Below, in pieces: positions 1,937 to 60,664 of a DNA stretch of 64,000 nucleotides. Within the stretch, counting starts at the first letter, position 1. Each line of letters opens with the position of its first letter. Both the position numbers and the translations under genes were made by a program. Under the pieces are notes generated by a model. It did not search any database. It saw only the letters and a program-made list of their open reading frames with translations, and was not told where the DNA came from. The stretch spans positions 46,247,680 through 46,311,679 of the forward strand of contig NC_064841.1 of the NCBI RefSeq assembly GCF_024166365.1. Reading direction: 5' to 3'. The DNA comes from Elephas maximus. Taxonomy: Eukaryota.

Positions 1937-2497
1937 TCTGCTCCCAGTCCAAAGCCCAGCGTCAAGGTTTCCCCCCGGGACGCTGCACTCCCAGCTCCAA
2001 AACCAGTCGCTGCCTCCCAGCGACCTCTCCTCCCACCAGTCGCGTCACCGCACTGCCCGCGCGGACTGGCAGGGTCCCCTCCCCATGCACACTGGCTGGG
2101 CTTCCCCGAGTTCAGTTCAGGGGGCTGGGGCTGCTCCCCGTGTTTGCACTGTCACAGGATGTCGTGCTCAGGTCCCCTGCACCGAGTCCAAAGCCCCAGG
2201 CCAAGTTTCCCTGGCTGGGAAGCCGCACTCCTGGCTCCAAAACCAGTCGCTGCCTCCCGGCGACCTCTCCTCCCACCAGCTGTATCGCCCTGCTGCTCGC
2301 GCGGAGTGGCTGGGCCCCCTCCCGAGGTCAGTTCAGGGGGGTAGGGCTGTGCCCCATGTTTGTGCCGTCACAGGATGCCGTGCTCAGCTCCCCTGCACCC
2401 AGTCCAAAGCCTGGCGCCAAGGTTTCCTGACTGGGACGCTGGCTCCAGGCTCCAAAAACAGTTGTTGCTTCCCCGTGGTTGTTCATTCTCAGTCTCT
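1937..2497 (-). repeat. CpG-rich tandem monomers (~220-240 bp, ~2.4 copies) inside the L1 5'UTR
   Basis: Direct repeats 1937-2180, 2181-2398 and 2399-2497 share CCAGTCCAAAGCC...GGCTCCAAAACCAGTCGCTGCCTCCC...GTCACAGGATG. They are locally CpG-rich (CCGCGCGG). This is the promoter-monomer architecture known from mouse L1. Confidence 0.6.
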
Positions 2498-2627
2498 GTT
2501 ACTCAGGTCAACTCTTTAAATCTGTGTTTGTTGGTCATGGTTCGTAAATTGTCATGTATGTGATCGATTCACTTGTTTTTCCGAGTCTTCGTTGCAAGAG
2601 GGATCCGAGATAGCGTCTAGCTAGTCA

Positions 2628-2640
2628 GCCATCTTGGCCC
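2628..2640 (-). promoter_or_regulatory. YY1-type initiator motif (rc GCCAAGATGGC) at the L1 5' terminus
   Basis: Identical core to the YY1 site at the start of the human L1 5'UTR (GGAGCCAAGATGGCCG). It recurs at the 5' ends of the other two complete L1s here. Confidence 0.4.
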
Positions 2641-2966
2641 TGCTGATGTCAATTCTTTATTTCACCAGTTTGTCTAGTTAAAGTAGGACCAACCAACCAG
2701 CTTCTTTGTACTTCTCATTATGACAAAACTGTAGAAAGGTATCACACATGTATTCACCCAGATCCCTGGCTTTCACCAATACCTGATCTATTGGTGGTGA
2801 TATTTTGTGTATTTGTATTGCCACCTCATGCCATGGATTAGCAGTGCCTTCTTTACTACTGGAGGCAGAGTCATCATCTTTAAGACTAACTGAATTTGAG
2901 AACCAATTTGGAAAAGTCATCCTTACAATTTGTTTCCTTAGAACAACTCTTGGTACCAAATGTCTT

Positions 2967-3600
2967 AGGCTGGTTTCCCTAGAGAAGCAAAACCAGTAAA
3001 GCATATAAATATGTATAGAGAAAGATTTATATCAAGGAAATGGCTCCCCTAGTAGTAGAGGCTGGAAGGTCCCAAGTCCATGAATCAGAATAGAAGCTTC
3101 TCCTTATTCACGTAGCTGCAGGGGCTGGTGAAGCCAAGAGGGGAAGGTCAGAAAACAGGGCTCTTGTTCACAGGCTATGAAGACTGACAAATTCCAGGAT
3201 GAGCAGGAAAGACAACAAGGTTTCTTTTGATTTATGTAGCTGCAGGGGCTGGTGAACCCAAGATCAGCAGATGAGAGAGCAGGGCTGGTGCTCATAGGCT
3301 ATGAAGATTGACAAATCCCAAGGTTGGCAGGAAGACTGTAGGTAAGCTGCTAGCTCAAGTCTCAAGAACAGAAGACAGATGAACAGGAGCCAGCTGCAGA
3401 ATCCAGTGCTGGCAAAAGCAAGAATGTCCTCTTATATTAGGATGCAGGCACACGCCAAAGAAAACTCCCTTTCAACTGATTGGCTACTCACAACAGATTC
3501 TATCATAGCAGTGATCACATATCAAATCTCAACATGGAAGCAATCACAACATTATGAGACTACCAAAAACACTGAGAATCATGGCCCAGCCAAGCTGACA
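2967..3600 (+). repeat. Unclassified interspersed repeat R (begins TGTCTTAGG), containing an internal ~105-bp tandem duplication (3108-3215 / 3236-3335)
   Basis: A second partial copy in the same orientation lies at 5762-5855. The internal duplication reads GTAGCTGCAGGGGCTGGTGAA(G/C)CCAAG...GGCTATGAAGA(C/T)TGACAAAT(T/C)CCA. It ends GGCCCAGCCAAGCTGACACACAA directly before the hexamer array. The family could not be named from sequence alone. Confidence 0.4.
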
Positions 3601-4612
3601 CACAATCTTAACCAACACACTAACCCTATTGCTAATTCTAGCAATAGCTGTTGTGCTAATTCTAACCCTACTCCTAATCCCATTGTGCAACCCTAACCCT
3701 ATTTCTAATGAAAAAATTAACCAAAACCCTTTCATTAACCTCAATCCTAAACTCAACCCCAAACATAAACTTAAACCTAGCTTTAATCATAAAAAAATAA
3801 CCATAACTATAATCCTAATCTGAGCCATAACCTTATATCTAACCCTAACATGAATCCTAACCCTGTGTGTCACCCAAATCCTATCCATAACCCTAAACCT
3901 AACCCTACACCTACCCATAAACATAACCATAACCCTCACCCTAACACTCAGCCTATCCCTACCTTAAATAACAATAACACAAGCCCAAATTCTATGTTTA
4001 ACTCTAAATCAAGTTATAACCATAACTCGAGCCCTAATTCAAAGTTTAACATGAGTCCTAACACTATTCCTAACATTAACCCTAAAACAAGCCCTAAACT
4101 TATGTTTAACCCTAGCCTGAGCGTTAACTCTAACCCTAGTCCTAACACTAACCCTGACATTAAGCCTAACAAGCAGCACTAACTCTGCCATGAGCCATAA
4201 CCTTATGTTTACTCCTAACTGGAGCCTTAACCTGAGCCATAAACTTACCTCATTCATAAATATAACCATAACTTCTTTCTTTACTCTAACATCAACTCTA
4301 ACCAGAGCCCTAATCTATGTTTAAACTAAACATTAAGTTTAATGCTTAAAGTTAACTATTACTAAGCATAAACCTAACCTTAACACTAACTCTAACATGA
4401 GCCTGAATACTGTTTAACCATAAATCTAGCCCTAATGATAACATGAACCCTAATTCTAACCTGAGCCTGAGCCCTAACCCTAACTTTTATTTAACCCTAA
4501 TTTGAGCCCTAATGCTAATTTGAGTACTAACCCTAAGCCTAACAGAAGCCCTATGTTTAACTTTAACTGTAGAGCTAACCCTAAGATGAACTCTATGCCT
4601 CCCAATAACACT
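3600..4612. repeat. Degenerate telomere-like hexamer array, (CCCTAA)n-derived on the + strand (= TTAGGG on the - strand)
   Basis: Continuous run of hexamer variants: AACCCTAA, CCTAACCCTAA, CTAATCCTAA, CTAACCATAA, CTAAGCCTAA. The resulting PNPNP-type ORFs are artefacts. Confidence 0.85.
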
Positions 4613-5159
4613 GAGTAAGTGCAAGTAAACTGAGGCACTTGACTAAAGTAAAATGGCTGCTTTAGAGTTTGGGGCCCAACTCCATCTTGTCTTTCTTTTA
4701 ATATATAAAAATTCTTTCACAGGAGCTATCAAGAATTCTTCCTGAAACAATGTATCAGGAAGAAGACCTTGATACTGCCTCTTATCTAGGTCTCCTACGT
4801 AACTACTGGCAAGGAAATTTTCACTTGAGCAAGCTGTTTCTAAGAGAGAGATGTCCTGTAACCTTCCCCACCCTAGCCCCACTTCCAGTAACCTGCCTTG
4901 TATTAATCTAAGTCTGTAATGCCCAATCAAAAAAGCACATCTCAAGTCCTTTGTTCTCACCATTTGAAAGGTCTCCACAGCATTGCCATTTTGGAAACAT
5001 TCGTTCTGTCTGTAAATTTAGACATTTTCCCCAGGCTGGACTGTTATAAAATCAACAATAAATACCACTGCTTTACTAAGCAGAGTAAGTCCTTATTACT
5101 CTTAGACAACTCAAGCAATGAACCTAAATCAAGCTTTAGCCATGTGAGTAAACAATATC
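4613..5159. other. 547-bp non-repetitive segment splitting the telomere-like array
   Basis: The hexamer periodicity stops at ~4612 (CTGAGTAAGTGCAAGTAAACTG) and resumes at ~5160 (CTAGCCTAACCAAACCCACATCCTAATCCTAACC). No TE hallmark is recognisable in between. Confidence 0.5.
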
Positions 5160-5758
5160 CTAGCCTAACCAAACCCACATCCTAATCCTAACCTGAGCTC
5201 TAATGCTAACCCTAACATTAATCCTAAACATAACTCTACCCCAACCACAATTCTAACCTTAAGCCTAACCCTAACCATAACACTAAACCTAAACACAACC
5301 CCAACCTCACTCCTAGTCATATAATAAAGCCCAGACCTAATCATAACCATAATTTTTACCCCAGCTATAAACATAAAGTTAAACCTAACTGAAATAAACA
5401 CTACCCTTAACATAAGATTTAACCCATGTTTAAACCTAAACCCTTAAATCTAACCTGAGCCCTAACCTCATACCTAATCATGACCATAACCATGAACAAA
5501 AACCTAGCCCCAGTACTAAACATAAACTTAACACTAATCCTCACACTAATCCTAAAGTGAACCTGAATCCTATGTTAAACCTTCATATGGTCCTAAACTT
5601 AACCTGAGGCATATCCCCAGCTCTAACCCTAACCTGAGCCATAGCCTCACCCATCCGTAACAGTACTCCTAAGCCAAAGCCTAGTCCTAATAAAAAAAAA
5701 AACCAAAATGAGTTTATAACCATAATCCTAGCCATAACATTACCTTGAGCACTGTCTT
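5160..5758. repeat. Degenerate telomere-like hexamer array (continuation)
   Basis: Same C-rich hexamer family as 3600-4612, ending near ...ACCATAATCCTAGCCATAACATTACC. Confidence 0.85.
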
Positions 5759-5761
5759 AGG

Positions 5762-5855
5762 CCCTTAGAAGCAAAACCAGTTTCAGCTATAAATATATAT
5801 ACAGACAGAGAAATTTATATAAATGAAATGGGTCACACAGTTGTAGAGGCTGCAG
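5762..5855 (+). repeat. Second, partial copy of repeat R (first ~95 bp), same orientation as 2967-3075
   Basis: TGTCTTAGGCCCTTAGAAGCAAAACCAGT...ATAAATATATATACAGACAGAGAAATTTATATAAATGAAATGGGTCACACAGTTGTAGAGGCTGC is ~75% identical to 2967-3075. It is truncated where satellite A begins. Confidence 0.45.
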
Positions 5856-8600
5856 TTTGCAAAGGCAAAGTTACCGGATATATTCCACGAAAGAGAACCC
5901 AAAATAAAGTTTCTTCCTTTCTACTTGATTATGTCAGAGGGTTTGATTAAGTCAGAGGGTTTATTTCTCTTATTGAAAAACGTGCACCCTAATGTTGCCT
6001 CTGCAGTCTCTTAGTTGGAAAAGAATGTGAAATTATTCCCATTCAAATACATGCAAACACTTGTGTGTTATAGGTTTTCATTATGCACTTTGTTTTACTA
6101 GTGCATGAATGTGCATTAACAATCTCTTAATGAGAACACAATACCGTTTCTCCTGTGCAAGAACAGGGGCTATAGCAATGTGGTTTTACTGAGTAAACCT
6201 TGTGTTTGCAAGAGGCAGTTATCAAATTCATTGCACGAAAGAGAAACCAAAATAGAGTTTCTCTCATTCTACTTGCTTAAGTCAGAGGATTTAAGTCTGA
6301 GGTTTTTTTTCTCTTATTGAAAAACATGCAAACTAAAGTTGGCCCTGCAGTCTCTCAGTTGGAAAAGGATGGAAAGTTACTCCCATTCAAATACACACAG
6401 ACACTGGGTTTTATAGGTTTTCATATTATATGCACTTTGCTTTACCTGGGGATGAATGTGGATTAACGATCTCTTAATGAGAACACAATGCAATTGTTCC
6501 TGTGCAAAAACAAGTGATGTAGTTTTGCTCAGTAAACTTTGTGTTTGCAAGGGACAAACTTATCAAATTCATTGCATGAAAAAGAAGCCAAAATACATTT
6601 TATCTCATTCTACTTGATTAAGCCAGAGGATTTGATCAAGTCAGAGGGTTTTCTCTCTTACTGAGAAACAGACAAGCTAATGTCATCTCTGCAGTCTCTT
6701 ACTTGGAAAAGAATGTAAAGTTACTCCAACTTAAAGTTGCAGTGTTACTCCCATTCAAATACTAGCAGACATTTAGGTTTTATAGGTTTTCTATACACAC
6801 TTTGTCTTACCTGGGTGTGAACGTGCATTAACAATCCCTTAACAAGAACATAATAACGTTTCTTCTGTCCATTAACAGTGGTTATTGCGATGTAGTTTTG
6901 CTGAGTAAACGTTGTGTTTGCAAAAGCCAAAGTTACCTAATTCATTGCATGAAAGAGAAATCAAAATAGAGTTTATCTCATTCCACTGGATATCAGAGGG
7001 TTTGATTACTTCAGAGGGTTTTTTTCTCTTATTGAAAAACATGCAAGCTAATGTTGCCTCTGCAGACTCTTGGTTGGAAAAGACAGTAAAGCTACTCCCA
7101 TTAAAATATACGCAGACACTTAGCTTTGACAGGTTTCCTATATGCACTGTTTTACCTCCGAGTGAATGTGAACTAACAATCTATTTATGAGAACACAATG
7201 AACTTTTCCTGTGCATAAACACTCCCTATAGAGATGTAGTTTTACTGAGGAAATCTTTGTTGCAAGAGGCAGAGTTCCCAAAATCATTGCGTGAAAGTGA
7301 AACCAAAATACAGTTTATCTCATTCTACTTGATTAAGCCAGAGGATTTGATCAAGTCAGAGGGTTTTCTCTCCTACTGAGAAACAGACAAGCTAATGTCG
7401 CCTCTGCAGTCTCTTAGTTGGAAAAGAGTGTAAAGTTACTCCAGCAGACACTTAGGTTTTACAGTTTTTCTATATGCACCTTGTTTTACCTGGGCGTGAA
7501 TGTGCATTAACCATCTGTTAACAAGAACACAATGACGGTTTTCCTGAGCATAAACAGCAGCTATAGCGATGTAGTTTTGCTAGGTAAACCTTGTGTTTGC
7601 AAGAAGCAAAGTTCCCTAATTCATTGCATGAAAGAGTAACCAAAATGCACTTTCTCTCGTTTTACTTGATTAAGTCGGAGTGTTCGATTAAGTCAGAGGG
7701 TTTTTCTCTTACTGAAAATCATGAAAGATAAAGTTGCCTCTGCCTTCTTTTAGTTGGAAGAGAATGTAAAGTTATTCCTACCAAAATACTTACAGAAATG
7801 TAGTTTTCATAGGTTTTCTATATGTACTTTATGCTTACCTTGGAGTAATGTGCATTAACAATCTCTTAACAGGAACAAAATTACATTTTTCCTGTGTATT
7901 AACAGTGCCTGTAAAGATATAGTTTTGCTGAGTAAACCTTATGCTTGCAGGAGGCAAAGTTTCCAAATTCAATGCATGAAAAGAGTAACCAAAATACAGT
8001 TTCTTTTGTTATACTTCATTAAGTCAGAGTGTTTGATTAAGGCTTTTTTCTCTTACTGAAAATCATAAAACATAAAGTTATCTCTGCCTTCTCTTAGTTG
8101 CAAGAGAATGTCAAGTTACTCCTATTCAAATACGTACAGACACTTGGGTTTTACAGGTTTTCAGTATGTACTTTCTCTTATCCAGGCGTGAAGGCACATT
8201 AACAATCTCTTAATGAGATCACTAAGCAGTTTGTGCTGTGCAGGAACAGCGCTAGCTATCGCTATGTAGTTTTGCTGAGTAAACCTTGTATTTTCCAGAG
8301 GCAAAGTTACCAAGTTCACTGCATGAGAGAAACCAAAACACTTTCGCTCATTCTACTTAAGTCAGAGGTCTTGATCAAGTCAGAGGTTTTTCTCTCTTAT
8401 TGAAGAACATGCAGGGTAATTTTGCCTCTGCAGGAACTTAGTTGGATAAGAATGTAAAGTTCCTCCCATTCAAATACGAGCAGACACGTAGGTTTTATAG
8501 GTTTTTTATGTACACTTTGTTTTCACTGGGCGTGAAGGTGCATTAGGAATCTCTTAACAAGAATAGTCAGAGAGTTCTTTCTTTCACCGAGAAACATGCA
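5855..8600. repeat. Satellite A, domain S1: ~345-bp units (three diverged ~115-bp sub-monomers), ~8 units
   Basis: The marker AAACATGCAAGCTAATGTTGCCTCTGCAGTCTCTTAGTTGGAAAAGAATG recurs at ~5975, 6320, 6670, 7030, 7390, 7720, 8070 and 8400. Within the unit, GTTTCTCTCATTC, GTTACTCCCATTC and CAGTTTTTCCTGTGC segments lie ~115 bp apart. Confidence 0.85.
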
Positions 8601-11600
8601 AGCTGATGTTGCCTCTGAGCTCTCTTATTTGGAAAAGAGTGTGTAGTTACACACTTTGAGCTGTCGAAAGGCACTTGGATTGGTTAGGATTTCACCATGC
8701 ACTTTGTTTTCCCTGGGCAACAGTGTACATTCACAATCTCTTAACGCTAACACTGTGAATTTGCTCCTTGCCAGCATAGCGCTATGGCGATGTAGATTTT
8801 CAAAGAAACCTTGCATTTCCAAGAGCAAATTACCGACTTCATTGCAGGAAAGAGAAAAGAGAAGACAGTGTCTCTCATACATCCTTACTTTTGTCAAAGG
8901 ACTGGATGAAGTCAGGGAGATCTTTCTATCACTGAGAAATATGCCAGCTGATGTTGCCTCTGAGCTCTCTTATTTGGAAAAGAGTGTGTAGTTACACATT
9001 CTGAACTGTGGAAAGACACTTGGGTTGGTTATGATTTCACCATGCACTTTGTTTCCCCTGGGCAACAATGTGCTCTCACAAGCACTTAACGCTAACACTA
9101 CGGACTTGTTCCTCCTCAAAGAACACGGCTACCACAGTGTAGTTTTCCTGAGGAAAGCTTCATTTGCAGGGCCAAATTTGCCGAGCTCATTGTAGGAAAG
9201 AGAAACGAAATGACGGTTTTCTCATTCTGACTGATTTTGTCAGAAGGCTGGATGAATTCGAGAATTATTTCTTTTACCGAGAAGCACGCAAGCTGATGTT
9301 GCTCTGAGCTCTGTTCTTTGGAAATAATGTAAACTGACATGCAATAAACTGAGGAAGGACACGAGTTTGCTAGGATTTCACTATGCACTGTGTTTCCCCT
9401 AGGCGTCAGTGTGCTCTCAGGATCTCTTAACGGTAACAATATGTACTTTTTTCCTACAGGAAGAGATGTTACTGGTTTGTACTTTGGCCTAGGAAACCTT
9501 GCTTCTGCAAGTGCAAAGTTAAAAGAGTTTCTGCAGGAAAGAGAATACAAAAGGCCGTTTTCTCCCTTGGCATCAGTGAGCTTTCACAATCTCTTAACGC
9601 TAACTCTATAAAGTTGCTCCTCTGCAAGCATAGCACTATGGAGATGTAGATTTTCAAAGAAACCTTGCATTTGCAAGAACAAACTACTGAGATCATTGCA
9701 GGAAAAAGAAAAAAGAAGACAGTTTCTCTCATACACCCTTCCTTATCTCAGAGGACTGAATGAAGTCAGGGAGTTCTTTCTTTCACTGAGAAACATGCAA
9801 GCTAATGTTGCCTCTGAGCTCTCTTATTTGAAGATAAGTGTGGCATTACACACTTTGAACTGTGGAAAGACACTTGGGTTGGTTTGGATTTCACCATGCA
9901 GTTTGTTTCCCCTGGGCAAGAACATGCATTCACAATCTCTTAAGGCTAACACTATGTAGTTGCTTGTCTACAAGGTTAGTGCTACCGCAATGTAGTTTCT
10001 CAGAAGAAACCTTGCATTCGCAAGAGCAAATTACCGAGCTCATTGCAGGAAAAAGAAAACAAAAGACAGTTTCTCTCATACTGCCTCCTTTTATCAGAAG
10101 ACGGGATGGGGTCAAGGAGCTCTTTCTCTTGCTGAGAAACATGCAAGCTGATGTTGCCTCTGAGCTCTCTTATTTGGAAAATATTGTGTAGTTACACACT
10201 TTGAACTGTGGAAAGACACTTCTTTGGTTAGGATTTCACCGTGCACTTTGTTTCCTCTGGGTGGCAGCAACGTGCTTTCACAACCATTTAACACTAACAC
10301 TATGAACTTGTTCCTCTTCAAAGAACACGGCTACTGCAGTGTAGATTTCCCGAGGAAACCTTGCGTTTGCAAGTGCCAAATTTGCTGAGTTCATTGTAGG
10401 AAAGAGAAACTAAATGACGGTTTTCTCATTCTGACTGGTTTCGACAGAAGACTGGACAAATTCAGAGAGTTCTTTCTTTCACTGAGAAACATCCAAGCTG
10501 ATGTTGCCTCTGCTCTGTTCTTTGGAAATAACGTAAAACTGGGGAAAGACACGGGTTTCCTAGGATTTCACTATGCACTGTGTTTTCCCTGGGCATCAGT
10601 GTGCTCTCAGGATTTCTTAACGGTAACAATATGTAGTTGTTTCTCTGCAGGAAGAGATGTTACTGGTTTGTAGTTTGGCCTAGGAAACCTTGCTTTTGCA
10701 AGTGCGAAGTTACCGAGTTCCTTCAGGAAAGAACACAAAACATGGTTCTAACCCTGGGCGTCAGTGTGCTTTCACAATGTCTTAACGCTAACACTTGAAG
10801 TTGCTCCTTGTAAGCACAGCATTACGGCGATTTAGATTTTCAAAGAAACCTTGCGTTTGCAAGAGCAAATTACCGACTTCACTGCAGTAAAGAGAAAAGA
10901 GAAGACAGTTTCTCTCATATAGCCTTGCTTTTCTCAGAGGACTGGATGAAGACAGGGAGATCTTTGTATCACTGAGAAATATGCAAGCTGATGTTGCCTC
11001 TGAGCTCTTTTATTTGGAAAAGAGTATGAAGTTACACACTTTGAACTGTAGAAAGACACAGGTTGGCTAGGATTTCACCATGCATTTTGTTTCCCCTGGG
11101 CAACAACGTGTTTCACAAGTTCTTAACACTAACACTACGGACTTGTTCCTCTTCAAAGAACAGGGCTATCGCAGTGTAGTTTTCCAGAGAAAAGCTTATG
11201 CTTGCAAGGGCCAAAATTGCAAAGCTCATTGCAGGAAATTGAAACCAAAAAATGGTTTCCAATTCTGACTGCTCCATCAGAGGACTGGACGAACTCAGAG
11301 AGTCTTTTCTTTCACAGAGAAACATGCAAGCAGAATTTTCCTCTGACCTCTGTTCTTTGGAAATAACATAAATTGTCATGATTAAACTATTGAAAGACAC
11401 AGGTTTGCTAGGATTTCACTATGCACAGGGTTTTCCTTGGGCACCTGTGTGTTCTCAGGATATCTTAACGCTAACACTACATAGTTGTTTTTCCACAGGA
11501 AGAGATGTGACTGGTTTGTAGTTTGGCCTAGGAAATCTTGCTTCTTCAAGTACAAAGTTAAAGAGTTCCTGCAGGAAAGAGAATATAAAAGGCCGTTTTC

Positions 11601-14600
11601 TCCCTGGGCATAAGTGTGCTTTCACAATCTCTTAACGCTAGCTTCTCTGCAAGCATAGTGCTACGGAGATGTAGATTTTCAAAGAAACCTTGCATTTGCA
11701 AGAGCAAATTATTGAGATCATTGCAGGAAAGAGAAAAGAGGAGACAGTTTCTCTCTTACAGTCTTGCTTTTCTCAGAGGACTGAATGAAGTCAGGGAGTT
11801 CTTTCTTTCACTGAGAAACATGCAAGCTAATGTTGCCTCTGAGCTCTCTTATTTGGAGACGAGTGTGGCATTCCACACTTTGAACTGTGGAAAGACACTT
11901 GGGTTGGTTAGGATTTCACCATGCACTTTGTTTCCCGTGGGCAACAAAGAGCTTTCACAACCACTTAACACTAACACTACGGGCTTGTTCCTCCAAATAA
12001 CACAGCTACCGCAGTGCAGTTTTCCTGAGGAAACCTTGCGTTTGCAAGGGCCAAATTTGCTGAGCTCACTGGAGGAAAGAGAAACTAAACGATGGTTTTC
12101 TCCTTCTGACTGGTTTCGTCAGAAGACTGGATGAAGTCAGAGTTATTTCTATCACTAAGAAACATGGAAGCTGATGTTGCCTCTGCTCTGTTCTTTGGAA
12201 ATAATGTAAATTGACATGCATTAAACTGCGGAAGGACACGGGTTTTGTAGGATTTCACTATGCACTGTGTTTTCCCTGGGCGTCAGTGTGCTCTAAGGAT
12301 TTCTTAACGGTTACAATATGTAGTTGTTTCTCTGCAGGAAGAGATGTTATTGGTTTGTCGTTTGGCCTAGGAAACCCTGCTTTTACAAGTGTAAAGTTAC
12401 CAAGTTCCTTCAGGAAAGAGAATACAAAAGGCGGTTTTCTCCCTGGGCATCACCGTGCTTTCAGAATCTCTTAACGCTAACACTATGAAGTTGCTCCTTG
12501 CAAGCATAGCTCTACGGCGGTGTAGTTTTTCATGGAAACCTTACATTTGAAAGAGCAAATTCCCAACTTCATTGCAGAAAAGAGAAAGAAGAAGACAGTT
12601 TCTCTCATACAGCCTTGCTTTTCTCAGAGCACTGGATGATGTCAGGGACATCTATCACTGAGAAATATGCAAGCTGATGTTGCCTCTGAGCTCTCTTCTT
12701 TGGAAATAACATAAATTGACATGCCTTAAACTGGGGAAGTACACGGGTTTCCCAGGATTTCTCTATGCACTGTGTTTTCCCTGGACATCAGTGTTCTCTC
12801 AGGATCTCTTAACGGTAACAATACGTAGTTGTTACTCCACAGGAAGAGATGTTACTGGGTTGTTGTTTGGCCTAGGAAACCTTGTGTGCAAGTGCAAAGT
12901 TACGAGTTCATGTAGGAAAGAGAGAGAATACAAAAGAACATTTTCTCTCTGGGTGTCAGTGTGCTTTCACAATCTCTTAACGCTAACACTGTGTAGTTGT
13001 TCCTCTTGAAGGATGGTGCTACGGCGATGTAGAATTTCAAAGAAGCCGTGCGTTTGCAAGAGCAAATTACCGACTTCATTGCAGGAAAGAGAAAAGAGAA
13101 GACAGTTTCTCTCATACGGCCTTGCTTTTCTCAGAGGACTGAATGAAGTCAGGGAGTTCTTTCTTTCACTGAGAAACAAGCAAGTTGATGTTGCCTCTGA
13201 GCTCTCTTATTTGGAGATGCGTGTGGCATTCCACACTTTGAACTGTGGAAGGATACCCGGGTTAGTTAGGATTTCACCATGCACTTTGTTTCCCCTGGGC
13301 AACAACGTGCTTTCACAACCACTAACACTACGGACTTGTTCCTCTTTAAAGAATATGGCTACTGCAGTGTAGTTTTCCTGAGGAAACCTTGCATTTCTGA
13401 GGGCCAAATTTCCTGAGCTCTTTGTAGGAAAGAGAAACCAAACAACAGTTTCTCATTCTGACTGCTTTCATCAGAGGACTGAACGAATTGAGAGAGTTCT
13501 TTCTTTCACTGAGAAACATGCAAGCTGATGTTTCCTCTGAGCTGTGTTCTTTGGAAGCAATGTAAATTATCACGCAGTAAACTACTGAAAGACACGGGTT
13601 TGAGTGGATTTCACTATGCACTGTATTTTCCCTGAGTGTCAACGTGCTCTCAAGATCTCTTCACAGTAACAATACGTACTTGTTTCTCTGCAGGGAGAGA
13701 TGTTACTGGTTTCTAGTTTGGCCTAGGAAACCTTGCATTGCAAGTGCAAAGTTACCGAGTTCCTGTGGGAAAGAATACAAAAGACCATTTTCTCCCTGGG
13801 TGTCAGTGTGCTTTCGCAATCTCTTAAGGCTAACACTCTGTAGTTCCTCTGGAAGGATAGTGCTATGGCGATGTAGATTTTCAGAGAAACCTTGCATTTG
13901 CAAGAGCAAATTACCAAGATCACTGCAGGGAAAAGAGAAGACAGTTTCTCTCATACTGCCTCCTTTTCTCAGAGCACTGAGTGAAGTCAGGGAGTTCTTT
14001 CTTTCCCTGAGAAACATGCAAGCTGATGTTGCCTCTGCTCTGTTCTTTGAAAATCACACAAATTGTCATGCATTAAACTGCTGAAAGACAAGGGTTTGCT
14101 AAGATTTTGCTATGCATCTTGTTTTCCCTGGGCATCTGTGTGCTCTCAGGATATCTTAATGGTACCACTACATAGTTGTTTCTCTGCAGGGACAGATATG
14201 ATGGCTTTGTAGTTTGGCCTAGGAAACCTTGCTTCTGCAAGTGCAAAGTTAAAGAGTTCCTGCAGCTAAGAGAATACAAAAGGCCGTTTTCTCCCTGGGC
14301 ATCAGTGTGCTTTCACAATCTCTTAACGCTAACTCTATAAAGTTGCTCCTACATAAGCATACCACTAAGGCGATGTAGATTTTCAAAGAAGCCTTGTGTT
14401 TGCAAGAGCAAATTACCGACTTCATTGCAGGAAAGAGAAAAGAGAAGACAGTTTCTCTCATACAGCCTTGCTTTTCTCAGAGGACTGAATGATGTCAGGG
14501 AGTTCTTTCTTTCACTGAGAAACATGCAAGTTGATGTTGCCTCTGAGCTCTCTTATTTGGAGACGAGCGTGCCTTTCCACACTTTGAACTGTGGAAAGAC

Positions 14601-16600
14601 ACTGGGTTGCTTAGGATGTCACCATGCACTTTGTTTCCCCTGGGCAACAACGTGCTTTCACAACCACTTAACGCTAACACTACGGACTTGTTCCTCTTCA
14701 AATAACACAGCTACCACAGTGTAGTTTTCCTGAGGAAACCTTGCATTTGCAATGGACAATTTTGCCGAGCTCATTGTGGGCAAGAGAAACCAAACAACGG
14801 TTTTCTCATTCTGACTGGTTTCCACAGATGACTGGACGAATTCTGAGAGTTCTTTCTTTCATTGAGAAACATGCAAGCCGATGTTGCCTCCGAGCTCTCT
14901 TCTTTGGAAATAATGTAAATTTACATGCCTTCAACTGGGGAAGTACACAGGTTTCCTAGGATTTCTCTATGTACTGTGTTTTCCCTGGGCGTCAGTGTTC
15001 TCTCAGGATCTAATGGTAACAATAGGTAGTTGTTACTCCACAGGAAGAGATGTTACTGGTTTGTAGTTTGGCCTAGGAAACCTTGCATTGCAAGTGCAAA
15101 GTTACTGAGTTCATGTAAGGAAGAGAATACAAAAGACCGTTTTCTCCCTCGGTGTCAGTGTGCTTTCACAATCTCTTAAGGCTAACACTGTGTAGTTCCT
15201 CTGGAAGGATAATGCTACCATGATGTAGATTTTCAAAGAAGCCTTGCATTTGCAAGAGCAAGATACCCAGATCACTGCGGGGAAGAGAAAAGACAGTTTC
15301 TCTCATACTGCCTCCTTTCCTCAGAGGACTAGATGAAGTCAGGGAGTTCTTTCTTCAACTGAGCAATATGCAAGCTGATGTTGCCTCTGAGCTCTCTTTT
15401 TTGGAAAAGAGTATGAAGATACACACCTTGAAGTGTGGAAAGACACTTGGGTAACTTAGGATTTCACTATGCACTTTAGTTTCCCTGGGCAAAAATGTGC
15501 TTTCACAATCTCTTTTCCTTAACACTACATTCATGTTCCTCTTTAAAAAACAGGGCTACCGCAGTGTAGTTTTCCTGTGGAAAGTTTGCGTTTGCAAGGG
15601 CCATATTTGCTGAGCTTATTGTAGAAAGAGAAACCAAACAACTGTTTCCCATTCTGACTGCTTTCGTCAGAGGACTGGACGAAGTCAGAGTTCTTTCTTT
15701 CACTGAGAAACATGCAAGCTGGTGTTTTCTCTGAGCTCTGTTCTTTGCAAGTAATGTAAGTTGTCACACATTAAACTACTGTAAGACACGGGTTTGCTTG
15801 GATTTCACTATGCACTGTGTTTTCCCTGGGGTGTCAATGTGCTCTCAGGGTCTCTTAACGGTAACAATACGTAGTTGTTTCTCTGCAGGGAGAGATGTTA
15901 TTGCTTTGTAGTTTGGCCTAGGAAACCTTTCTTTTGCAAGTGCAAAGTTACTGAGTTCCTGCAGGAAACAGAATACAAAAGACCCTTTTCTCCTTGGGCT
16001 TCAGTGTGCTTTCACAATCTCTTAGCACCAACACTGTTTCCTTGCAAGGGTAGCGCCACCGTGTTGCCATTTTTCGGAAGAAACCTTGCTTTTGCAAGAG
16101 CAAATTACCTAGTTCATTGCAGGAAAGAGAAAAGAAAGTTTCTCTCATACTGCCTGCTTTTCTCAGAGGACTGGATAAAGTCAAGGAGTTCTTTTTTTCA
16201 CTGAGAAACATGCAAGCTTGTTGCCTCTGAGCTCTTTTATTTGGAAAAGAGTGTGTAGTTACACACTTTGACCTGTGGATAGACATCTGGGTTGTTTAGG
16301 ATTTCACCATGCACTTTGTTTTCCCTGAGTGACAACGTCCTTTCACAAGCTCTTAATGCTAACACTACAGATTTGTTCCTCTTCAAAGAACACGGCTACT
16401 GCCGTGTAGTTTTCCTGAGGAAACTTTGGGTTTTCAAAGGCCACATTTGCCAAGCTCTTTGTAGGAAAGAGAAACCAAATGAGAGTTTCCCATTCTGACT
16501 GCTTTCATCAGAGGACTGGATGAAGCCAGAGAGTTCTTTCTTTCACTGAGAAACATGCAAGCTGATGTTGCCTCTGAGCTCTGTTCTTTGTAAATAACAT
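8600..16600. repeat. Satellite A, domain S2: ~845-bp higher-order repeat (~2.5 x 345 bp), ~9.5 units
   Basis: The marker (C/T)ATTAAACTG(C/G)GGAAGGACACGGGTTTGCTAGGATTTCACTATGCACTG recurs at 9348, 10540, 11385, 12222, 12727, 13590, 14075, 14930, 15775 and 16610. Spacings are mostly 835-863 bp, with deletion variants (485, 505) and one expanded unit (1192). Units 845 bp apart are ~85-92% identical by eye; adjacent sub-units are much more divergent. Confidence 0.8.
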
Positions 16601-18190
16601 AAATTGGCATGTGTTAAATTGGGGAAAGACATGGATTTGCTAGGATCAAATTACAGAGTTCATTGCAGGAAAGAGAAAAGACAATTTCTGTCATACTGCC
16701 TGCTTTTCTCAGAGGACTGGATGCAGTCAGAGAGTTTTTTCTTTTACTGAGAAACATGCAAGCTGATGTGGCCTCTGGGCTCTCTTAATTGAAAATGAAT
16801 GCAAGGTTACATCCATTGGTGTGCAGGGAGATACTTGGGGTGGCTAGGGTTTCAAAATTCAGTTTGTATTCCCTGGCGTCACTGCTTGCTGACAACATCT
16901 TAATGCTAAATCTATGTGTTAGTTCCTTTGCAAGGAGAGCAGCTACCGCGACGTTGTTTTTCTGAGGAAGCCTTGCAGTTGCAAGAACCAAAGTTACCTC
17001 GTTTATTGCAGGAAAAAGTAACCAAAAGACAGATTCCCTTATTCTACCTGCTTTCGTCAGAGGACTGGTTGAAGGCAGAGATTTTTTCTCTTTGTGAGAA
17101 ACATGCAGTTGTTGACTGCGCTCTCTTCCTTAGAAAAGAATGGAAAGTTATACCCTTTGAATAGTGGTTAATGTGCTTTCACAAAATCTTAACATTAACA
17201 CTACATATTTGTTCCTCTGCAAGAACAGGGGCTACCGCGATTCAGTCTTACTGGGGAAACCTTGCTTTTGCAAGAGCCAAAGTTACTGAGCTCTTTGCAG
17301 GAAAGAGAAACCAAAAGGCAGTTTTCCCACTCTCCCTGCTTTCCTCAGAAGACTGGATGAAGTCAGAGTGTTCTTTTGCTGATAAACATGCAAGCAATGT
17401 TGACTTTGCTCTCTCGTATTAGAAAAACAGTGGAAAGTTACCAAGTTTCATGCCAGAAAGAGAAACCAAAGGACAGTTTCTCTCATTCTGCCTGTTTTCA
17501 TTACAGGACTGGATGAAGTCAGAGAGTTTTTTCTCTTACTGAGAAACATGCAAGCTGATGTTGCCTCTGTGCTCTCTTCCTTGGAAAAGAATGGAAAGTT
17601 ACACCTATTGAACAGTGGGCATACATTGGGTTTGCTAGGATTTCTACATGCACATTTTTTTATCGTGGATGTTAAGGTGCTTTCACAAAATCTTAAGGCT
17701 AACTCTATGTTGTGTTCCTCTGCAAGAACAGGGGCTACCATGATGTAGTCTTGCTTAGGAAACCTTGTGTTTCCAAGAGCCAAACTTACCAAGTTTAATG
17801 CCAGAAAGAGAAACCAAAAGACAGTTTTTCTCATTCTGCCTGCTTTCCTCCGAGGACAGGATGAAGTCAGAGAGTTCTTTGTCTTACTTAGAAACATGCA
17901 AGCTGATGTTGCCCCTGTGCTCTCTTCCTTGGAAAAGAATGGAAAGTTACACTCATTGAACTGCAGGCAGACACGGGTTTCAATATGCACATTATTTTGC
18001 TTGGTGTCAATATGTTTTCACAATATCAACGCCGACACTAAGTAGTTGCTCCTCTGCAAGAACAGGGGCTTCCATGATGGAGATTTGCTGAGGAAACCTT
18101 GCATTTGCAAGAGCCAATGTTACCGAGTTCATTGCCAGAAAAAGAAACCAAAAGAGTTTCTCTCATTCTGCCTGCTTTCTTCAGAGGAGT
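16600..18190. repeat. Satellite A, domain S3: divergent ~345-bp units at the array edge
   Basis: Recognisably the same family (GAAACATGCAAGCTGATGTTGCC(T/C)CTGTGCTCTCTTCCTTGGAAAAGAATGGAAAGTTACAC) with ~345-bp spacing (17540, 17885), but not homogenised with S2. Confidence 0.7.
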
Positions 18191-21100
18191 TTTCTTTAGG
18201 CCTCTGAATTACTTCATAAATTTTTGAGAGGTTTTTCTGGTTTTGTACCCCAGTTTAAGGCCTTTTAGAAACTACTTTCTATAATGCCTCAGCCTATTCA
18301 TGCCCTCCTTTGAATAGTAGTCCCACTCTGGATCAATTCCCGGGACTGCATTATCGGCTGGCAATTTGTCAGGATTCTGGGGGTTTTATTGGTCGAACAA
18401 ATTTTCTGTTTACTAAATGCTAATAGAAAAAAGATAAGAGTGGAAAATCTTTTGTGTTCTCTTTGATTGGCTTTATATGAAAAGTTCTTTAAAAGAATTT
18501 TCAGGATTTTCTCATCTATTGTCTTTATCTCAGGGCTCAGTCAATGTTTCTTTCTGAGTCCTTGTGAGTCCTTGTTATCCCAGCTCCAGCTAGGTTACAT
18601 TTTCTATGCTCAAGGACAGGGAACACATCGATGATCAATACCTGGACTTTGTTGAGCTCCTAGATGGCAGCCATTTCAGGCTCTTTAAACTGATGGTGCT
18701 GGCCTTCCTCCGGATACCATCTGGTTCTTCACCAGGGTCTTGTAAGAGCAAAGTTCTCATCAATTGCAGACTTAGTGTACATCAACATTTTAGCCCTATG
18801 CTTCTCTTTTGCCTTTTAAATATGTAAGACAATAGAGGATAAATTTTATTATGTCTAATACTATCAGGACTATCCCTTGCAGTAGTGACCTAGCTCATGT
18901 ACTTATTCTTGATAGTAACCAACTCAATAAATCTGGTGTTTGTAAGGGTGTTACATTGTATAACCAAGTAGCTTGTTGTCTAATTCTATGTGTTCTACTT
19001 TACTTGTGTTATTTAACAAGAGGTATTTGTTACAGCAGAGACTACACTTTTCTTGGACCAATAAATAAAAATCTAAGGCTATTCTGTTATGTCATGTCAT
19101 CTTGGCTTAATGAGGCCAGAGATCACTGTGGTGTTTTCACCCCACTAGCAACTTAGTCTGTTATTTATCCCATAGTGATTGATAAATTTCTTAAAGATTT
19201 CTCCAACTCAAATATACTATTTTACAATGGGTAACAAATTTAACATGACCTTTCTAATATTTACCATGGATATCTAAAGAAAATCTTAAAGTTCCCAAAG
19301 TGTACTGTCTATGTATTTATCAGGAATTTAAACAAGAATTGTCTTCATAAATTCACTATCAATTGGAAATTAGTATAGGTGAATATATCACATAAAAACG
19401 TATCTAGAAGGAACAAAGCTTGTCCAGAGAGAACAGAAAATATAGAAAAACTTACATATGTCAACTAAGTTTTCATTACAGAATTTATGATTAACAAGAT
19501 AATACAGGATGGACTTCTCATGTTGGAGGTCTCTAGTTAATCTGTCTGAAACTTAGTAAGTGTTCTCCCTGAGGGCAAGCTGCCCCTCCTTGGTTTACCT
19601 ATTAACAGTCATGGGTCAGTTTCTCAGAAGCAGAAGTGGAATCTAAGACGAAATGGAGCCTGACTCAAGAGATCGATCTCTTTGAGAACCTGATTTTCTT
19701 AAGGTACATAATTTTCTGTACAGCAAGGGGGTGAGGGTTTGATTATAAACATTAGACAGGTATTTTATACAATATTGTCTTGCAGACTGATTAAACCAAT
19801 AACTGATTTACCCTAAACATAACTCTTATTTACTGATCTTGGGAATCATTTTCTAAAAACAGACTGAATTCTTTTTAAAAAAAAAACAAAACACAACATT
19901 CAGAGAAAAAAATAATCTTGTTAGTTTATCTGGACAATTGTTTACCTCAAAGTGGCTTCAGGAATCAGTTTTTTTTTTTTTCCTTCAAAATTTGAGGTTC
20001 AAAAGGACATCCAAAGGCAATGGCCTGTGTGGGTTGCCCCAACCTCTATGAAAGCCAGAAATCTGGATTCTGGGAGAATTACATACAACTATCTCACGGT
20101 TTTCTCTTTTGGATCTTGACCTTTTTATAGAATCTTTGATCAAAAATGCTCAATCACTATCTGTTTTTAAGATCTCAGGCACCATACAGCAAATCAGGAG
20201 GTAGGATAGAACACACTAATGTTAGGCCAATTGTTTGAAATAACCAATGAAACCATGATCCAAATGTCTTTGAACCAAGGAAACAAATCTCATGAGGTGT
20301 TTGTACATAAACAGCATCAGTAACTGCTTTTCATGTGCCTCAGCATTCTGCCAAACCTGTTAACTCAAGAGTTACAATATCTAAACCCACTAGTTAGATA
20401 ATTTAGGAGAAGAGGAATATGGTTTCTTATCTCTAGAAAGTAGGACCTTAAAGCATTTCTTATTTCCAGAAAGAAAAACCTTAAAACGTCTGTAATATTC
20501 CCACATAAAACCCATAGCATCATATCATTTACTCAGCCTTATGTAGTTAACTTCTGTTCCATGTGATACTGGGTCAACCACAGTCTGTGAACCCATCAGC
20601 ATTTGCATAAGAATTTTGGAAATTTCTGTTGAGTCTAGTCACACTCCCTTTCATAAGTCCAACATAGCCCATCTTTTTTTGTTGAGCTATTCTGGTCAAA
20701 TGTTTGCAGAAAGTAAAAACTTATCTGTAGATGACAAAACTTAATATGGTCATGATTAATTTATAAACATAATTCCTACTGGTGAAAGACATGATAGAAA
20801 TTAATTACAAGCACAAACAAAGACCAAATAAAATCAGTTAAAAAAAAAGTTTTAGAACCGTATTTTTAAAGAACTTCAGATGTAACACATAATAATCTTC
20901 AGACATAATACCATGTAGTCAGGGTGTATGAAGAATATACCAAGGCCATCAAGTCTCCAAAATACCTGAACAGCAACAATAACTTCATAGGTAAATGATG
21001 TGAATTCTCCAAACTATTGATTTTAATGATGCTAAAAAATCTATAAATACGTTTGCAACCAAGTTAGCAATTAAGATGACATAATATTATGTATTAGTTG

Positions 21101-29101: not shown

Positions 29102-30957
29102 GACAGGAGAGAAAGAAAAGACCTAAATGGGTATCAGAAGAGACTCTGAAACTTGTTCTTGAATGTCAAGTAGCTAAAGGAAAAAAGAAAAAATGATGAA
29201 GTAAAAAAGCTGAACAGAAGACTTCAAAGGGTGGCTGGAAAAGACAAAGTAAAGTATTATGATATGTGCAAAGAGCTGGAGATAGAAAACCAAAAGGGAA
29301 AAACATGCTCAGCATTTCTCAAGCTGAAAGAACTGAAGAAAAAATTCAAGCCTCGAGTTGCAATACTGAGGGGTTCCACGGGAGAAATATTAAATGACAA
29401 AGGAAAAATCAAAAGAAGATGGAATAAATACACAGAGTCACTGTACCAAAAAGAAGTGGTCGACCTTCAACCATTTCAGGAAGTAACATATGATTGGGAA
29501 CCAATGGTACTAAAGGAAGAAGTGCAAGCTGCACTGAAGGCATTGGATTAAAACAAGGCTCCAGGAATTGATGGAATACCAACTGAGATGTTTCAACAAA
29601 CAGCTACCTGGCCAAACGACAGGAAGAGATCCATATTTATGCCTATTCCCAGGAAAGGTGATCCCACTGAATGCAGAAATTATTGAACAATATCATTAAT
29701 ATCACATGCAAGCAAAATTTTGCTGAAGATCATTCAAAAGCAGCTACAGCAGTGCATCGATCGGCAACTACCAGAAATTCAAGCTGGATTTAGAAGAGGA
29801 CATCGAACCAGGGATATCATTGTTGATGTCAGATGGATCCTGGCTGAAAGCACAGAATACCAGAAAGATGTTTTCCTGTGTTTTATTGACTATGCTAAGA
29901 CATTCGACTGTGTGCCCCATAACAAATTATGGGTAACGTTGCGGAGAATGAGAATTCCAGAACACTTAACTGGGCTCATGAGGAATCTATACCTGGATCA
30001 AGAGGCAATCATTCATACAGAACAAGGGGATACTGCATAATTTAAAGTCAGGAAAGGTGTGCATCAGGGTTACATCTTTCACCATACCTATTCAATCTAT
30101 ATGCTGAGCATATAATCTGAGAACCTGGACTCAATGAAGAAGAACGGGAAATCAGGATTGGAGGAAGACTCATTAACAATCTGCATTATGCAGATGACAG
30201 AACCTTTGTTGCTGAAAGCGAAGACAATTTGAAGCACTTACTGATAAAGATCAAAGATCACAGCCTTCAGTATGGATGACACCTCAACATAAACAAAAAT
30301 CCTCACAGCAGTAACAATAAGCAATATTACGATAAATGGAGAAATTTAAAATTCTTGAAGTTGTCAAGAATTTCTTTTCACGTGGATCCACAATCAACAC
30401 CCACTGAAGAAGCATCAAGAAATAAAACAACACATTAAATTGGAAAATTCTGCTGCAAAAGACCTCTTTAAAGTGTTGAAAAGCAAAGATGTCTCTGAGA
30501 ACTAAGGTGCATCTGACTCAGGCCATGCTGTTTTCAATCTCCTTATGTGCATGCAAAAGCTGGATAGTGAATAAGGAAGACTGAATAAAAATCAACACCT
30601 TTGAATTGTGGTCTTGGTGAAGAATATTGAAGATATCATGGTATGCCAAATGAATGAACAAATCTGTCTTGGAATAATGCTCCTTAGAAGCAAGGATGGC
30701 AAAACTATGTCTCACATACTTTGGACATGTTATCAGGAGGGGCCAGTCCCTGGAGAAGGACGTCATGCTTGGTAAAGTAGAAGATCAGCGAAAAAGAGGA
30801 AGACCCTCAACGAGGTTGATTAACCCAGTAGCTGCAACAATGGGCTCAAGCGTAGCAACAATTGAGAGGACGGCACAGGGCTGGGCAGTGTTTCATTCTG
30901 TTGTGCCTAGAGTTGCTTACAGTCCAAACCAAGTCTACGACATCAAACAACAACTCC
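29102..30957 (+). mobile_element. RTE (BovB-like) LINE, 5'-truncated: RT domain and C-terminal domain, frameshifted
   Basis: ORFs 29231-29551 and 29720-30040 encode ...ALKALD*NKAPGIDGIPTEMFQ...ILLKIIQKQLQQCIDRQLPEIQAGFRRGHRTRD...FIDYAKTFDCVPHNKLW. ORF 30696-31022 encodes LTYFGHVIRRGQSLEKDVMLGKVEDQRKRGRPSTR...VAATMGSSVATIERTAQGWAVFHSVVPRVA, the RTE/BovB C-terminal signature. Confidence 0.8.
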
Positions 30958-54320: not shown

Positions 54321-54332
54321 ATACAAAACCAG

Positions 54333-60618: not shown

Positions 60619-60664
60619 AAATGGTATTGAAGGAAGAAATCCAAGTTGCAACGAAGGCATTGGC

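Follow-up and report, generated by a model that had tools for sequence, protein, structure and literature searches.

Background

Interstitial telomeric sequences (ITS) have been described in several classes. In heterochromatic ITS (het-ITS), telomeric repeats form large, amplified blocks visible by FISH, which can reach megabase size and lie mainly at or around centromeres, as in the pericentromeric blocks of the Chinese hamster (PMC6410037). Fusion ITS consist of head-to-head (TTAGGG)n-(CCCTAA)n repeats, such as those at human 2q13-q14, and sub-telomeric ITS have as their hallmark degenerate TTAGGG-like blocks in a single orientation (PMC6410037). Short ITS and TERC-ITS are presented as insertions that telomerase makes where double-strand breaks occur (PMC7215372, PMC8537989).

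The array described here comprises 1,670 bp of telomere-type hexamers (Table 1) and lies in a window of 64 kb, i.e. the whole stretch of DNA analysed. It shares the consensus, unit make-up and orientation of sub-telomeric ITS, being a TTAGGG-like block with many non-canonical units, in one orientation and amid other repeats; it differs from them in being much more decayed (identity of 68%, perfect runs of 13 bp at most) and in being interrupted and bounded by LTRs. With het-ITS it has in common a telomere-type hexamer beside satellite DNA and transposons, but 1.67 kb of it survives, which would probably not be visible by FISH, and it displays neither satellite-style amplification nor homogenisation. 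Degenerate internal telomere repeats, read as the relic of a former chromosome end, also recall fusion ITS; in contrast with these, the array has a single orientation and no head-to-head arrangement. Short ITS and TERC-ITS resemble it in having telomere-type hexamers at a non-terminal site; they contain a few near-exact hexamers, in some cases beside a piece of telomerase RNA, whereas the array has some 280 degenerate units and lacks a TERC fragment.

Table 1. Features of the telomere-like array and its surroundings, in coordinates of the window
Feature	Position	Strand	Evidence and remarks
E1 internal region, start	2641-2940	-	ORF list, translation; open frame 2678-2920/3004
PBS of E1, TGGTACCAAGAGTTGTTC	2941-2958	-	complementary to tRNA-Leu(UAA) 3' end; 2 nt (TT) past LTR1 terminus
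LTR1, presumed MaLR/ERV-L-type, complete, 659 bp	2961-3619	-	TG...CA termini; PBS beyond 2961
Array block A	3620-4619	+	6-bp phase map, lag-6 signal; TTAGGG-like on minus; 169 units, 16 perfect
Solo-LTR-like TG...CA element, 463 bp	4620-5082	.	TGCAAG start, AAGCA end, 7-bp target-site duplication
Array block B	5083-5752	+	phase map, lag-6 signal; 112 units, 5 perfect
LTR2, last 100 nt (sense) of LTR	5753-5852	-	aligns to 2961-3064; LTR1 subfamily and orientation
Array junction sequences			LTR-end/GTGCTCAAGG; AATAGGGTTAG/TGTGTTGG
TMAsat-like satellite, ~36 units of ~345 bp	5853-18192	+	TRF periods 344-347, monomer map
Further TMAsat-like block	23902-26715	+	
Further TMAsat-like block	43154-47800	-	other subunit type

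Composition of the array

Relative to shuffles, lag-6 self-identity was high both over positions 3600-4610 (0.49, z = 14.7) and over 5157-5758 (0.50, z = 11.6), compared with 0.27 (z = 0.5) between the blocks and 0.28 in the left flank; when the blocks were joined without the insertion (1,671 bp), z was 18.4. The values of the two blocks were in agreement with the initial annotation, which had reported degenerate telomere-like hexamers in two blocks. No other period-6 excess of comparable length was present in the window, other satellite borders included. The only other flagged spot, about 130 bp long (54448-54580), was at threshold level and inside a SINE dimer. Within block B, periodicity was weak at 5083-5160 and a run of 12 A occupied positions 5692-5703.

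Wrap-around alignment to (CCCTAA)n gave 68% identity and about 2.6% indels. The majority base at the six positions was C-C-C-T-A-A in each block independently and AACCCT (equivalent to CCCTAA) ranked first among all 700 cyclic hexamer classes, the fit of the best period-5 and period-7 units being far worse. All 60-bp tiles fitted CCCTAA better than TTAGGG on the + strand, which indicated one orientation; the G content of this strand was 8%. The C-rich strand was thus + throughout, as first annotated, and the G-rich strand ran 5' to 3' toward lower coordinates, away from the TMAsat-like block. Perfect units were scarce (21/281, or 7.5%) and the longest perfect telomeric run in the array reached 13 bp. 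The array also held 13 YTAGGGTTR sites and all 12 AACCCTAA octamers of the window. With regard to the variants quoted in the initial annotation, CCTGAGCC-type units were present, but CTGAGCCTAA had no literal occurrence.

The same data can be read in terms of convergence, i.e. an A/C-rich, low-complexity hexamer minisatellite of the YYYTAA type that telomerase never made. The low share of perfect units would fit such an origin, as would the better conservation of the TAA half of the units (70-91%, vs 44-71% for the CCC half) and the nearly equal score of the near-neighbour AACCTT (0.60, vs 0.63 for CCCTAA). However, CCCTAA stood at the top of the 700 hexamers and supplied the majority base at six positions in both blocks, and a next rank for single-substitution neighbours is what decay from CCCTAA predicts. 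Convergence is therefore considered highly improbable, and we infer a telomeric origin of the hexamer, from its consensus only.

Adjacent array units were no more alike than remote ones and there was no higher-order repeat: among lags of 1 to 60 units, no z value exceeded 2.5 except an isolated 3.0 at lag 22. There was thus no sign of satellite-style evolution, which the initial annotation had put forward as one of two possibilities. A higher-order repeat hinted at by recurring TATGTTTAAC at a spacing of about 100-118 bp was rejected, since the unit-lag test revealed no significant structure. In the phase map, the repeats did not grade from degenerate to pure along the tract; the 6-bp phase persisted over tens to about 200 bp, with local shifts near the insertion junction.

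Searches for vertebrate telomerase RNA found no match at the gathering threshold, nor at E <= 5 in 2400-6400, so that the array flanks contain no such fragment, and no other Rfam family was matched. A 110-aa PN-rich ORF in the array belonged to no Pfam family, the junction ORF at 3379-3693 had no homologues, and none of 10 window ORFs was present in a collection of 15 billion proteins.

LTR elements at and within the array

Both outer edges of the array coincided with LTR termini. The 5' (sense) terminus of LTR1 met the array at 3619/3620 and the 3' (sense) terminus of LTR2 at 5752/5753, the remainder of LTR2 being replaced by satellite. We tentatively take LTR1 to be of the MaLR/ERV-L type on the basis of MLT1-type consensus sequences; a literature search with LTR consensus strings gave no useful match for naming the family. 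LTR1 contains an internal 124-bp tandem duplication and, on the minus strand, a TATA-like motif (TATAAGAGG) as well as a poly(A) signal in decayed form (GATATAAATC). Its first ~100 nt on the + strand match LTR2; the alignment opened exactly at TGTCTTAGG and closed at GAGGCTG, with 86% identity over 95 aligned positions (K2P 0.15), and upstream of TGTCTTAGG the neighbouring sequences of the two LTRs were unrelated. If both LTRs derive from one burst, this distance suggests an age of tens of millions of years. The window contains a third LTR of the MaLR type, a solo LTR with a target-site duplication of 5 bp.

Two nucleotides past the end of LTR1, TGGTACCAAGAGT matched the complement of the tRNA-Leu-TAA 3' end at 16 of 18 aligned positions; tRNA-Leu-TAA-1-1 ends in ...CCCCACTCCTGGTACCA (PMC10359600). 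The alignment score of this primer binding site (PBS) was 19, a value reached by none of 2000 shuffles (3.0 +/- 2.1), and the site was the sole match in the window to TGGTACCAGGAGT at one mismatch or fewer. The element to which LTR1 belongs, designated E1, thus displays the order of parts by which ERV-L/MaLR elements are recognised, a TG...CA LTR followed by a tRNA-Leu PBS; an open frame comes next. An L1, whose 5' end reads GGGCCAAGATGGC on the minus strand, interrupts the internal region of E1 at 2640, and the 3' end of E1 falls outside the window. The open frame matched no Pfam family and had no homologue in the protein collection. Since the tRNA-Leu PBS is on the far, minus-strand side, LTR1 is the 5' LTR of an element that extends in the direction opposite to the array, which is therefore the upstream flank of E1. 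The likeness to ERV-L/MaLR elements concerns the flanking elements and not the array, which is not their internal region.

The array might instead be transposon cargo, namely the internal region of a non-autonomous MaLR-type element (LTR2-array-LTR1, sense minus) spread by retrotransposition or arising through recombination inside one. Such an element would account for two direct LTRs of the same subfamily and orientation joined to the array exactly at their termini, and transposition of mobile elements is listed among the possible routes of ITS spread (PMC6410037). But exact termini are equally expected from two independent insertions into the array. Neither a PBS after LTR2 (score 4, vs 3.6 +/- 2.4 for shuffles) nor a polypurine tract before LTR1 was found, the 15 nt in question being only 67% purine and consisting of the repeat itself. 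Moreover, the PBS and open frame on the other side of LTR1 make it the 5' LTR of a different unit with a non-hexameric internal region. The canonical MaLR internal region is a single gag-like ORF (PMC10735291), whereas the DNA between these LTRs is hexamer repeat, whose 110-aa ORF matches no Pfam family, as noted above. No second copy exists in the window. A cargo origin is thus unlikely, and the candidate LTR-internal-LTR element suggested by the direct repeats at 2961 and 5753 was given up as the leading reading, as the PBS lies beyond LTR1, with none on the array side and no polypurine tract. Searches of the literature for telomere-like repeats inside mammalian LTR elements yielded nothing relevant, and the LTR2/array junction had no exact match among metagenome contigs.

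The two blocks had been described as separated by a unique segment of 547 bp. Most of this segment proved to be the 463-bp solo-LTR-like insertion, followed by about 70 bp of very weak repeat. The insertion is bracketed by the direct repeat GAGTAAG, which forms the last 7 bp of block A (4613-4619, the target site) and the first 7 bp of block B (5083-5089, the second copy of the duplication). The 6-bp periodicity halted and restarted at its boundaries and was absent inside it (z = -0.02). TG...CA ends with a 7-bp direct repeat occurred in the same configuration in 28 of 20,000 shuffles, and the window contained no second copy of the element.

Satellite and surrounding DNA

The array was said to adjoin a satellite block, and the two are indeed 100 bp apart. 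Satellite units were 70-82% identical to a published monomer of the TMAsat family (supplement of PMC8421680), and this satellite appears to be related to manatee TMAsat, hence its designation as TMAsat-like; such a relationship would assign the source of the DNA to Paenungulata. Adjacent units were just 66-79% alike. The TMAsat PCR primers had no match within 4 mismatches, and a search for CENP-B-like boxes gave weak box-like matches only. Around the array, satellite, L1 and LTR sequences form a mosaic.

This neighbourhood bears on the het-ITS class to which the tract had been assigned. The array could be the remnant of a once-large amplified pericentromeric block, resulting from an ancestral fusion or from amplification within heterochromatin. 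The telomere-type CCCTAA consensus, that part of the assignment which held, speaks in favour of this, together with the position of the array 100 bp from a 12-kb satellite whose relatives are reported as centromeric only in sirenians (PMC8421680). Transposons and satellite DNA often flank ITS (PMC6410037), and both array ends were set by insertion or truncation, so that the original extent may have been larger. The large amplified block typical of this class was not observed: the tract covers 1.67 kb in 64 kb, with no other sizeable period-6 tract even at other satellite borders, and neither homogenisation nor higher-order repeats were detected. Besides, outside Sirenia the TMAsat-like arrays are not counted as satellite DNA of a typical kind (PMC8421680) and telomere FISH in the manatee gave no interstitial signal (PMC9323068). 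Finally, the array carries no fusion signature since no head-to-head arrays occur, every tile being CCCTAA-oriented, which did not bear out the ancestral fusion evoked in the initial annotation. A het-ITS remnant consequently appears improbable.

The polarity of the array could also point to a former chromosome end, i.e. terminal or sub-telomeric repeats of an acrocentric-like arm that were located on the distal side of a centromere-type satellite and became internal later. The G-rich strand directed away from the TMAsat-like block and the hallmark of sub-telomeric ITS given above would both be expected in this case, but E1 and the L1, together 3.6 kb or more of non-telomeric DNA, now occupy the 'distal' side and a gradient from degenerate to pure repeats is lacking. 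We consider this origin quite improbable.

Origin and history of the array

Taken together, our data favour, with a probability of roughly two-thirds for the whole reading, a remnant of an old, single-orientation tract of the TTAGGG/CCCTAA type in which homogenisation stopped long ago. In this reading, at least three LTR elements inserted into or beside the array, which would be host DNA and today a decayed, inert relic. Decay would have proceeded chiefly by point substitution, mainly with loss of the C/G runs; the 6-bp phase was kept over the distances given above because changes were mostly substitutions, with few indels. The strong decay and old age put forward in the initial annotation are supported. 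As for the original class, the tract may have been an internalised sub-telomeric or telomeric one or an amplified interstitial one; we lean toward a degenerate tract of the sub-telomeric type.

From then on, the tract would have served as ordinary host DNA for retroelements. E1 may have inserted with its 5' LTR at the left edge, its tRNA-Leu PBS and its internal region leftward, and have later been struck by the L1; a second LTR of the LTR1 subfamily would have inserted at the right edge, where the TMAsat-like satellite now truncates it, and the 463-bp solo-LTR-like element within the tract, with duplication of its target site. As the array would be the host DNA that the LTRs entered, we infer that it is older than their insertions, and it was presumably already degenerate when they arrived. 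Its present shape would have been made by transposon insertions, since one insertion splits the blocks and both outer edges are LTR termini.

Several observations stand against this relic reading. Same-subfamily LTRs in the same orientation around 2.1 kb resemble one LTR-internal-LTR element, and two independent insertions of the same type represent a coincidence of about 1% or a few percent, as an order-of-magnitude estimate. Furthermore, at 68% identity, about 0.42 substitutions per site would separate the tract from a pure array; as this exceeds what neutral decay plausibly gives in the time available, the tract would never have been pure or would mutate unusually fast. C-to-A changes were nearly as frequent as C-to-T in the array units, which simple decay does not explain.

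A mechanistic link between array and LTRs, either a MaLR-type cargo dispersing telomere-like DNA or an LTR family with a preference for telomere-like repeats, is doubtful. With respect to such a preference, three LTR insertions lie in or at a tract of 1.7 kb, two of them of one subfamily and orientation. If the array were cargo after all, a MaLR-type element could disperse interstitial telomere-like DNA.

The tract is an ordinary decayed telomere-like relic, one more in a paenungulate repeat-rich region, and is of little importance beyond annotation. To judge from its sequence, it is without present mechanism or function, its decay being too advanced for it to seed a telomere or to provide more than a few TRF-type binding sites. 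A (TTAGGG)n FISH probe would probably miss it, given perfect runs of at most 13 bp in 1.67 kb. The nested insertions (array, LTRs, L1, satellite truncation) nevertheless provide a relative chronology and a minimum age of the tract, and the exact LTR termini at both ends illustrate how an old repeat may come to look discrete and 'two-block' through the insertion of transposons. Should the locus lie at an evolutionary breakpoint or by a centromere, the polarity of the tract, with its G-rich strand directed away from the TMAsat-like block, would deserve renewed attention.

The telomere-like array

The initial annotation had placed a degenerate telomere-like hexamer array at 3600-5758, and its existence was confirmed by lag-6 autocorrelation, by a CCCTAA consensus and by the AACCCTAA octamers, all 12 copies of which in the window fell in the array; its coordinates were corrected (see table). 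The base composition of 3600-5758 was skewed on the + strand toward C (29%) and away from G (8%), with A at 37% and T at 26%. Lag-6 self-identity was 0.49 for 3600-4610 and 0.50 for 5157-5758, respectively 14.7 and 11.6 SD over shuffles; 6-bp periodicity was absent between the two blocks (lag-6 z = 0.5) and in the left flank, and the sole other period-6 spot in a sliding scan of the 64 kb was a threshold-level stretch of ~130 bp (54448-54580) within a SINE dimer. Wrap-around alignment with (CCCTAA)n gave 68% identity and ~2.6% indels, the per-position majority bases spelling CCCTAA in either block taken alone. Among 700 cyclic hexamer classes compared on ungapped 30-bp tiles, AACCCT (equivalent to CCCTAA) ranked first with a fit of 0.63, followed by its single-substitution neighbours, whereas the best period-5 and period-7 units reached only 0.42-0.45.

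Perfect hexamers represented 21 of the 281 parsed units, most units carrying one to three mismatches, and 13 YTAGGGTTR sites were counted in the array. CCCTAA outscored TTAGGG on the + strand in every tile, indicating a single orientation without head-to-head junction. Conservation differed between half-units (70-91% for T-A-A versus 44-71% for C-C-C), and substitutions were lopsided, the three C positions having changed 2.5-3 times more often than T-A-A. Over 3620-4619 and 5083-5752, C-to-A changes (158) were close in number to C-to-T changes (191), equivalent, on the G-rich strand, to a heavy loss of G to T; transition-biased simple decay does not explain this substitution pattern. Unit-order shuffling revealed neither a higher similarity of adjacent than of distant units nor a prominent higher-order period, and TRF returned only short, low-scoring patches (periods 6, 12, 18 and 24), all of which argues that the array is not being homogenised. 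It looks long-dead. A run of 12 A inside block B (5692-5703) may derive from the tail of a short retroposed insertion.

Comparison with interstitial telomeric sequences (ITS)

The proposal of a heterochromatic ITS (het-ITS) or fusion marker held for the telomere-type motif, common to all ITS classes compared, but not for size, homogenisation or head-to-head arrangement. Het-ITS are large telomeric-repeat blocks, chiefly centromeric or pericentromeric (review, PMC6410037), and the array differed from them in size and homogenisation, from fusion ITS in lacking a head-to-head arrangement, and from short ITS in not consisting of few exact repeats. No telomerase-RNA fragment was found at the array. 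Its likeness to sub-telomeric ITS is one of composition. Telomere FISH in manatees displayed no interstitial signals (PMC9323068); as the longest perfect telomeric run in the array was 13 bp, a signal from this locus would not be expected in any species. The array represents a decayed and inert telomere-like tract of an ordinary kind, the present outline of which is set by retroelement insertions and the adjoining satellite.

Features of the window discussed in the text
Feature	Position	Strand	Remarks
L1 5' part	1-2640	- (sense)	full-length 5' start (GGGCCAAGATGGC...); inside E1 internal region
E1 open frame	2678-2920	-	80-108 codons, 3' of primer-binding site
LTR1	2961-3619	- (sense)	complete TG...CA element, 659 bp; 3619 end touches first array unit
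Array block A	3620-4619	+	
Inserted sequence	4620-5082		463 bp; starts TG, ends CA; flanked by GAGTAAG direct repeat
Array block B	5083-5752	+	
LTR2	5753-5852	-	last 100 nt (sense) of LTR; subfamily and orientation of LTR1
Satellite block 1	5853-18192	+	~345-bp units
Satellite ORFs (144-180 aa)	9116-9550 (-), 11616-12134 (+), 13644-14084 (+), 17448-17990 (-)		through satellite
Satellite block 2	23902-26715	+	~345-bp satellite
L1 reverse-transcriptase fragments and L1 ORF1 dsRBD-like domain	29720-30040 (+), 35343-35726 (-), 37904-38338 (-)		between satellite blocks
Satellite block 3	43154-47800	-	inverted, other subunit type
tRNA-derived SINE tandem dimer	54144-54511		178 bp x 2, 83% identity
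Solo MaLR-type LTR	60149-60619		subfamily different from LTR1/LTR2; 5-bp target-site duplication CCATT / TCATT, 4/5

LTR and LTR-like elements within and around the array

Hexamer periodicity was lost near 4600 and returned weakly near 5100, and a 7-bp direct repeat, GAGTAAG, was located exactly where it stops and resumes (4613-4619 and 5083-5089). The 547-bp unique segment initially described between the two blocks is mostly a 463-bp TG...CA sequence enclosed by this repeat; the combination arose in 28 of 20,000 flank shuffles. The enclosed sequence displayed no 6-bp signal and had no further copy within the window. On sequence grounds, it is read as a putative solo-LTR-like insertion with its target-site duplication, and blocks A and B would formerly have been one tract of ~1,670 bp.

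Sequence from 2961 onward (TGTCTTAGGC...) had a second copy at 5753-5852. Likeness between these two LTRs, LTR1 and LTR2 (86% identity over 95 aligned positions, K2P 0.15), began precisely at TGTCTTAGG, DNA upstream of each copy being unrelated, and stopped for LTR2 at GAGGCTG, the satellite start. LTR1, which we take to be an MLT1-type MaLR LTR, contained a 124-bp internal tandem duplication (3098-3209 and 3222-3333, 81% identity), and a palindrome with 9-bp arms, CTATTGCTA ATTC TAGCAATAG, lay exactly at the LTR1/array junction (3620-3641).

On the minus strand, a tRNA-Leu(UAA) primer-binding site, TGGTACCAAGAGTTGTTC, was found two bases past the LTR1 end at 2961. Human tRNA-Leu-TAA has the 3'-terminal sequence ...CCCCACTCCTGGTACCA (PMC10359600). 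Its complement, TGGTACCAGGAGTGGGG, was matched at 12 of the 13 first bases, or at 16 of 18 when a single gap of 2 nt is allowed; this was the window's sole match at ≤1 mismatch and outscored 2000 of 2000 shuffles. A tRNA-Leu primer-binding site is a hallmark of ERV-L-type elements. The open frame that follows had no Pfam match and no homologue in the protein collection, and the minus strand of LTR1 carried, in the order expected, a TATA-like box and a decayed polyadenylation signal. Together, these features set the sense of LTR1 as minus, making it the 5' LTR of a leftward-running ERV-L/MaLR-type element, E1, with the array as upstream flank. A full-length L1 begins at 2640, beyond the E1 open frame; it comprises a CpG-rich region (GC 0.50-0.53) in which 5'UTR monomers of ~230 bp are repeated in tandem (about 1900-2450), and seems to be younger than the DNA around it.

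Origin and age of the array

An LTR-internal-LTR structure with the array as internal region was dropped because the tRNA-Leu primer-binding site lies beyond the far end of LTR1. It is also opposed by the lack of a primer-binding site past LTR2 (score at shuffle level) and of a polypurine tract ahead of LTR1, which likewise speaks against the array being transposon cargo. That it is cargo, or the preferred target of an LTR family, is unlikely, even though it is otherwise a mild coincidence that LTR1 and LTR2 share subfamily and orientation; the internal region described for MaLR elements is a gag-like ORF (PMC10735291), not such an array. The array is best read as a stretch of host DNA that received insertions of at least three LTR elements.

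The array would then be older than these insertions. Should LTR1 and LTR2 derive from a single burst, their K2P of 0.15, with 1.2-2.2 x 10^-9 substitutions per site and year commonly taken as the neutral rate in mammals, would place it tens of My ago, roughly 35-65 My. The 68% identity of the array corresponds to ~0.42 substitutions per site relative to a pure array, far beyond post-LTR accumulation, suggesting that it was already strongly degenerate when the LTRs arrived: it may never have been pure (cf. sub-telomeric variant repeats), may be much older, or may contain a fast-mutating G-run.

Satellite and other surrounding repeats

The window is repeat-rich mammalian DNA. Strings from its satellite occurred in the supplement of the manatee TMAsat report (PMC8421680), and a monomer printed there was 70-82% identical to dozens of window units. 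TMAsat is centromeric in sirenians, whereas elephant and hyrax arrays are divergent, short, mostly L1-flanked and 'probably not a typical satDNA', other mammals having none (PMC8421680). Judged by these identities, the satellite blocks are divergent relatives of sirenian centromeric TMAsat. This identifies the source as a paenungulate but does not locate a centromere nearby. Manatee TMAsat has an alternating 687-bp unit, whereas here two subunit types occupied separate arrays, one of them inverted. Units in the window were only 66-79% alike and thus do not represent a homogenised centromere core. The sliding period-6 scan detected no hexamer repeats at the window's other satellite borders. Gaps between the blocks were occupied by L1 fragments, the reverse-transcriptase and ORF1 pieces confirming a satellite/L1 mosaic. 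Satellite ORFs stay open across monomers because 345 = 3 x 115; the two tested had no Pfam family, and these ORFs are probably due to chance. The SINE dimer is presumably AfroSINE-like, in line with an afrotherian source, and the solo LTR at 60149-60619 appears to sit within another interspersed repeat.
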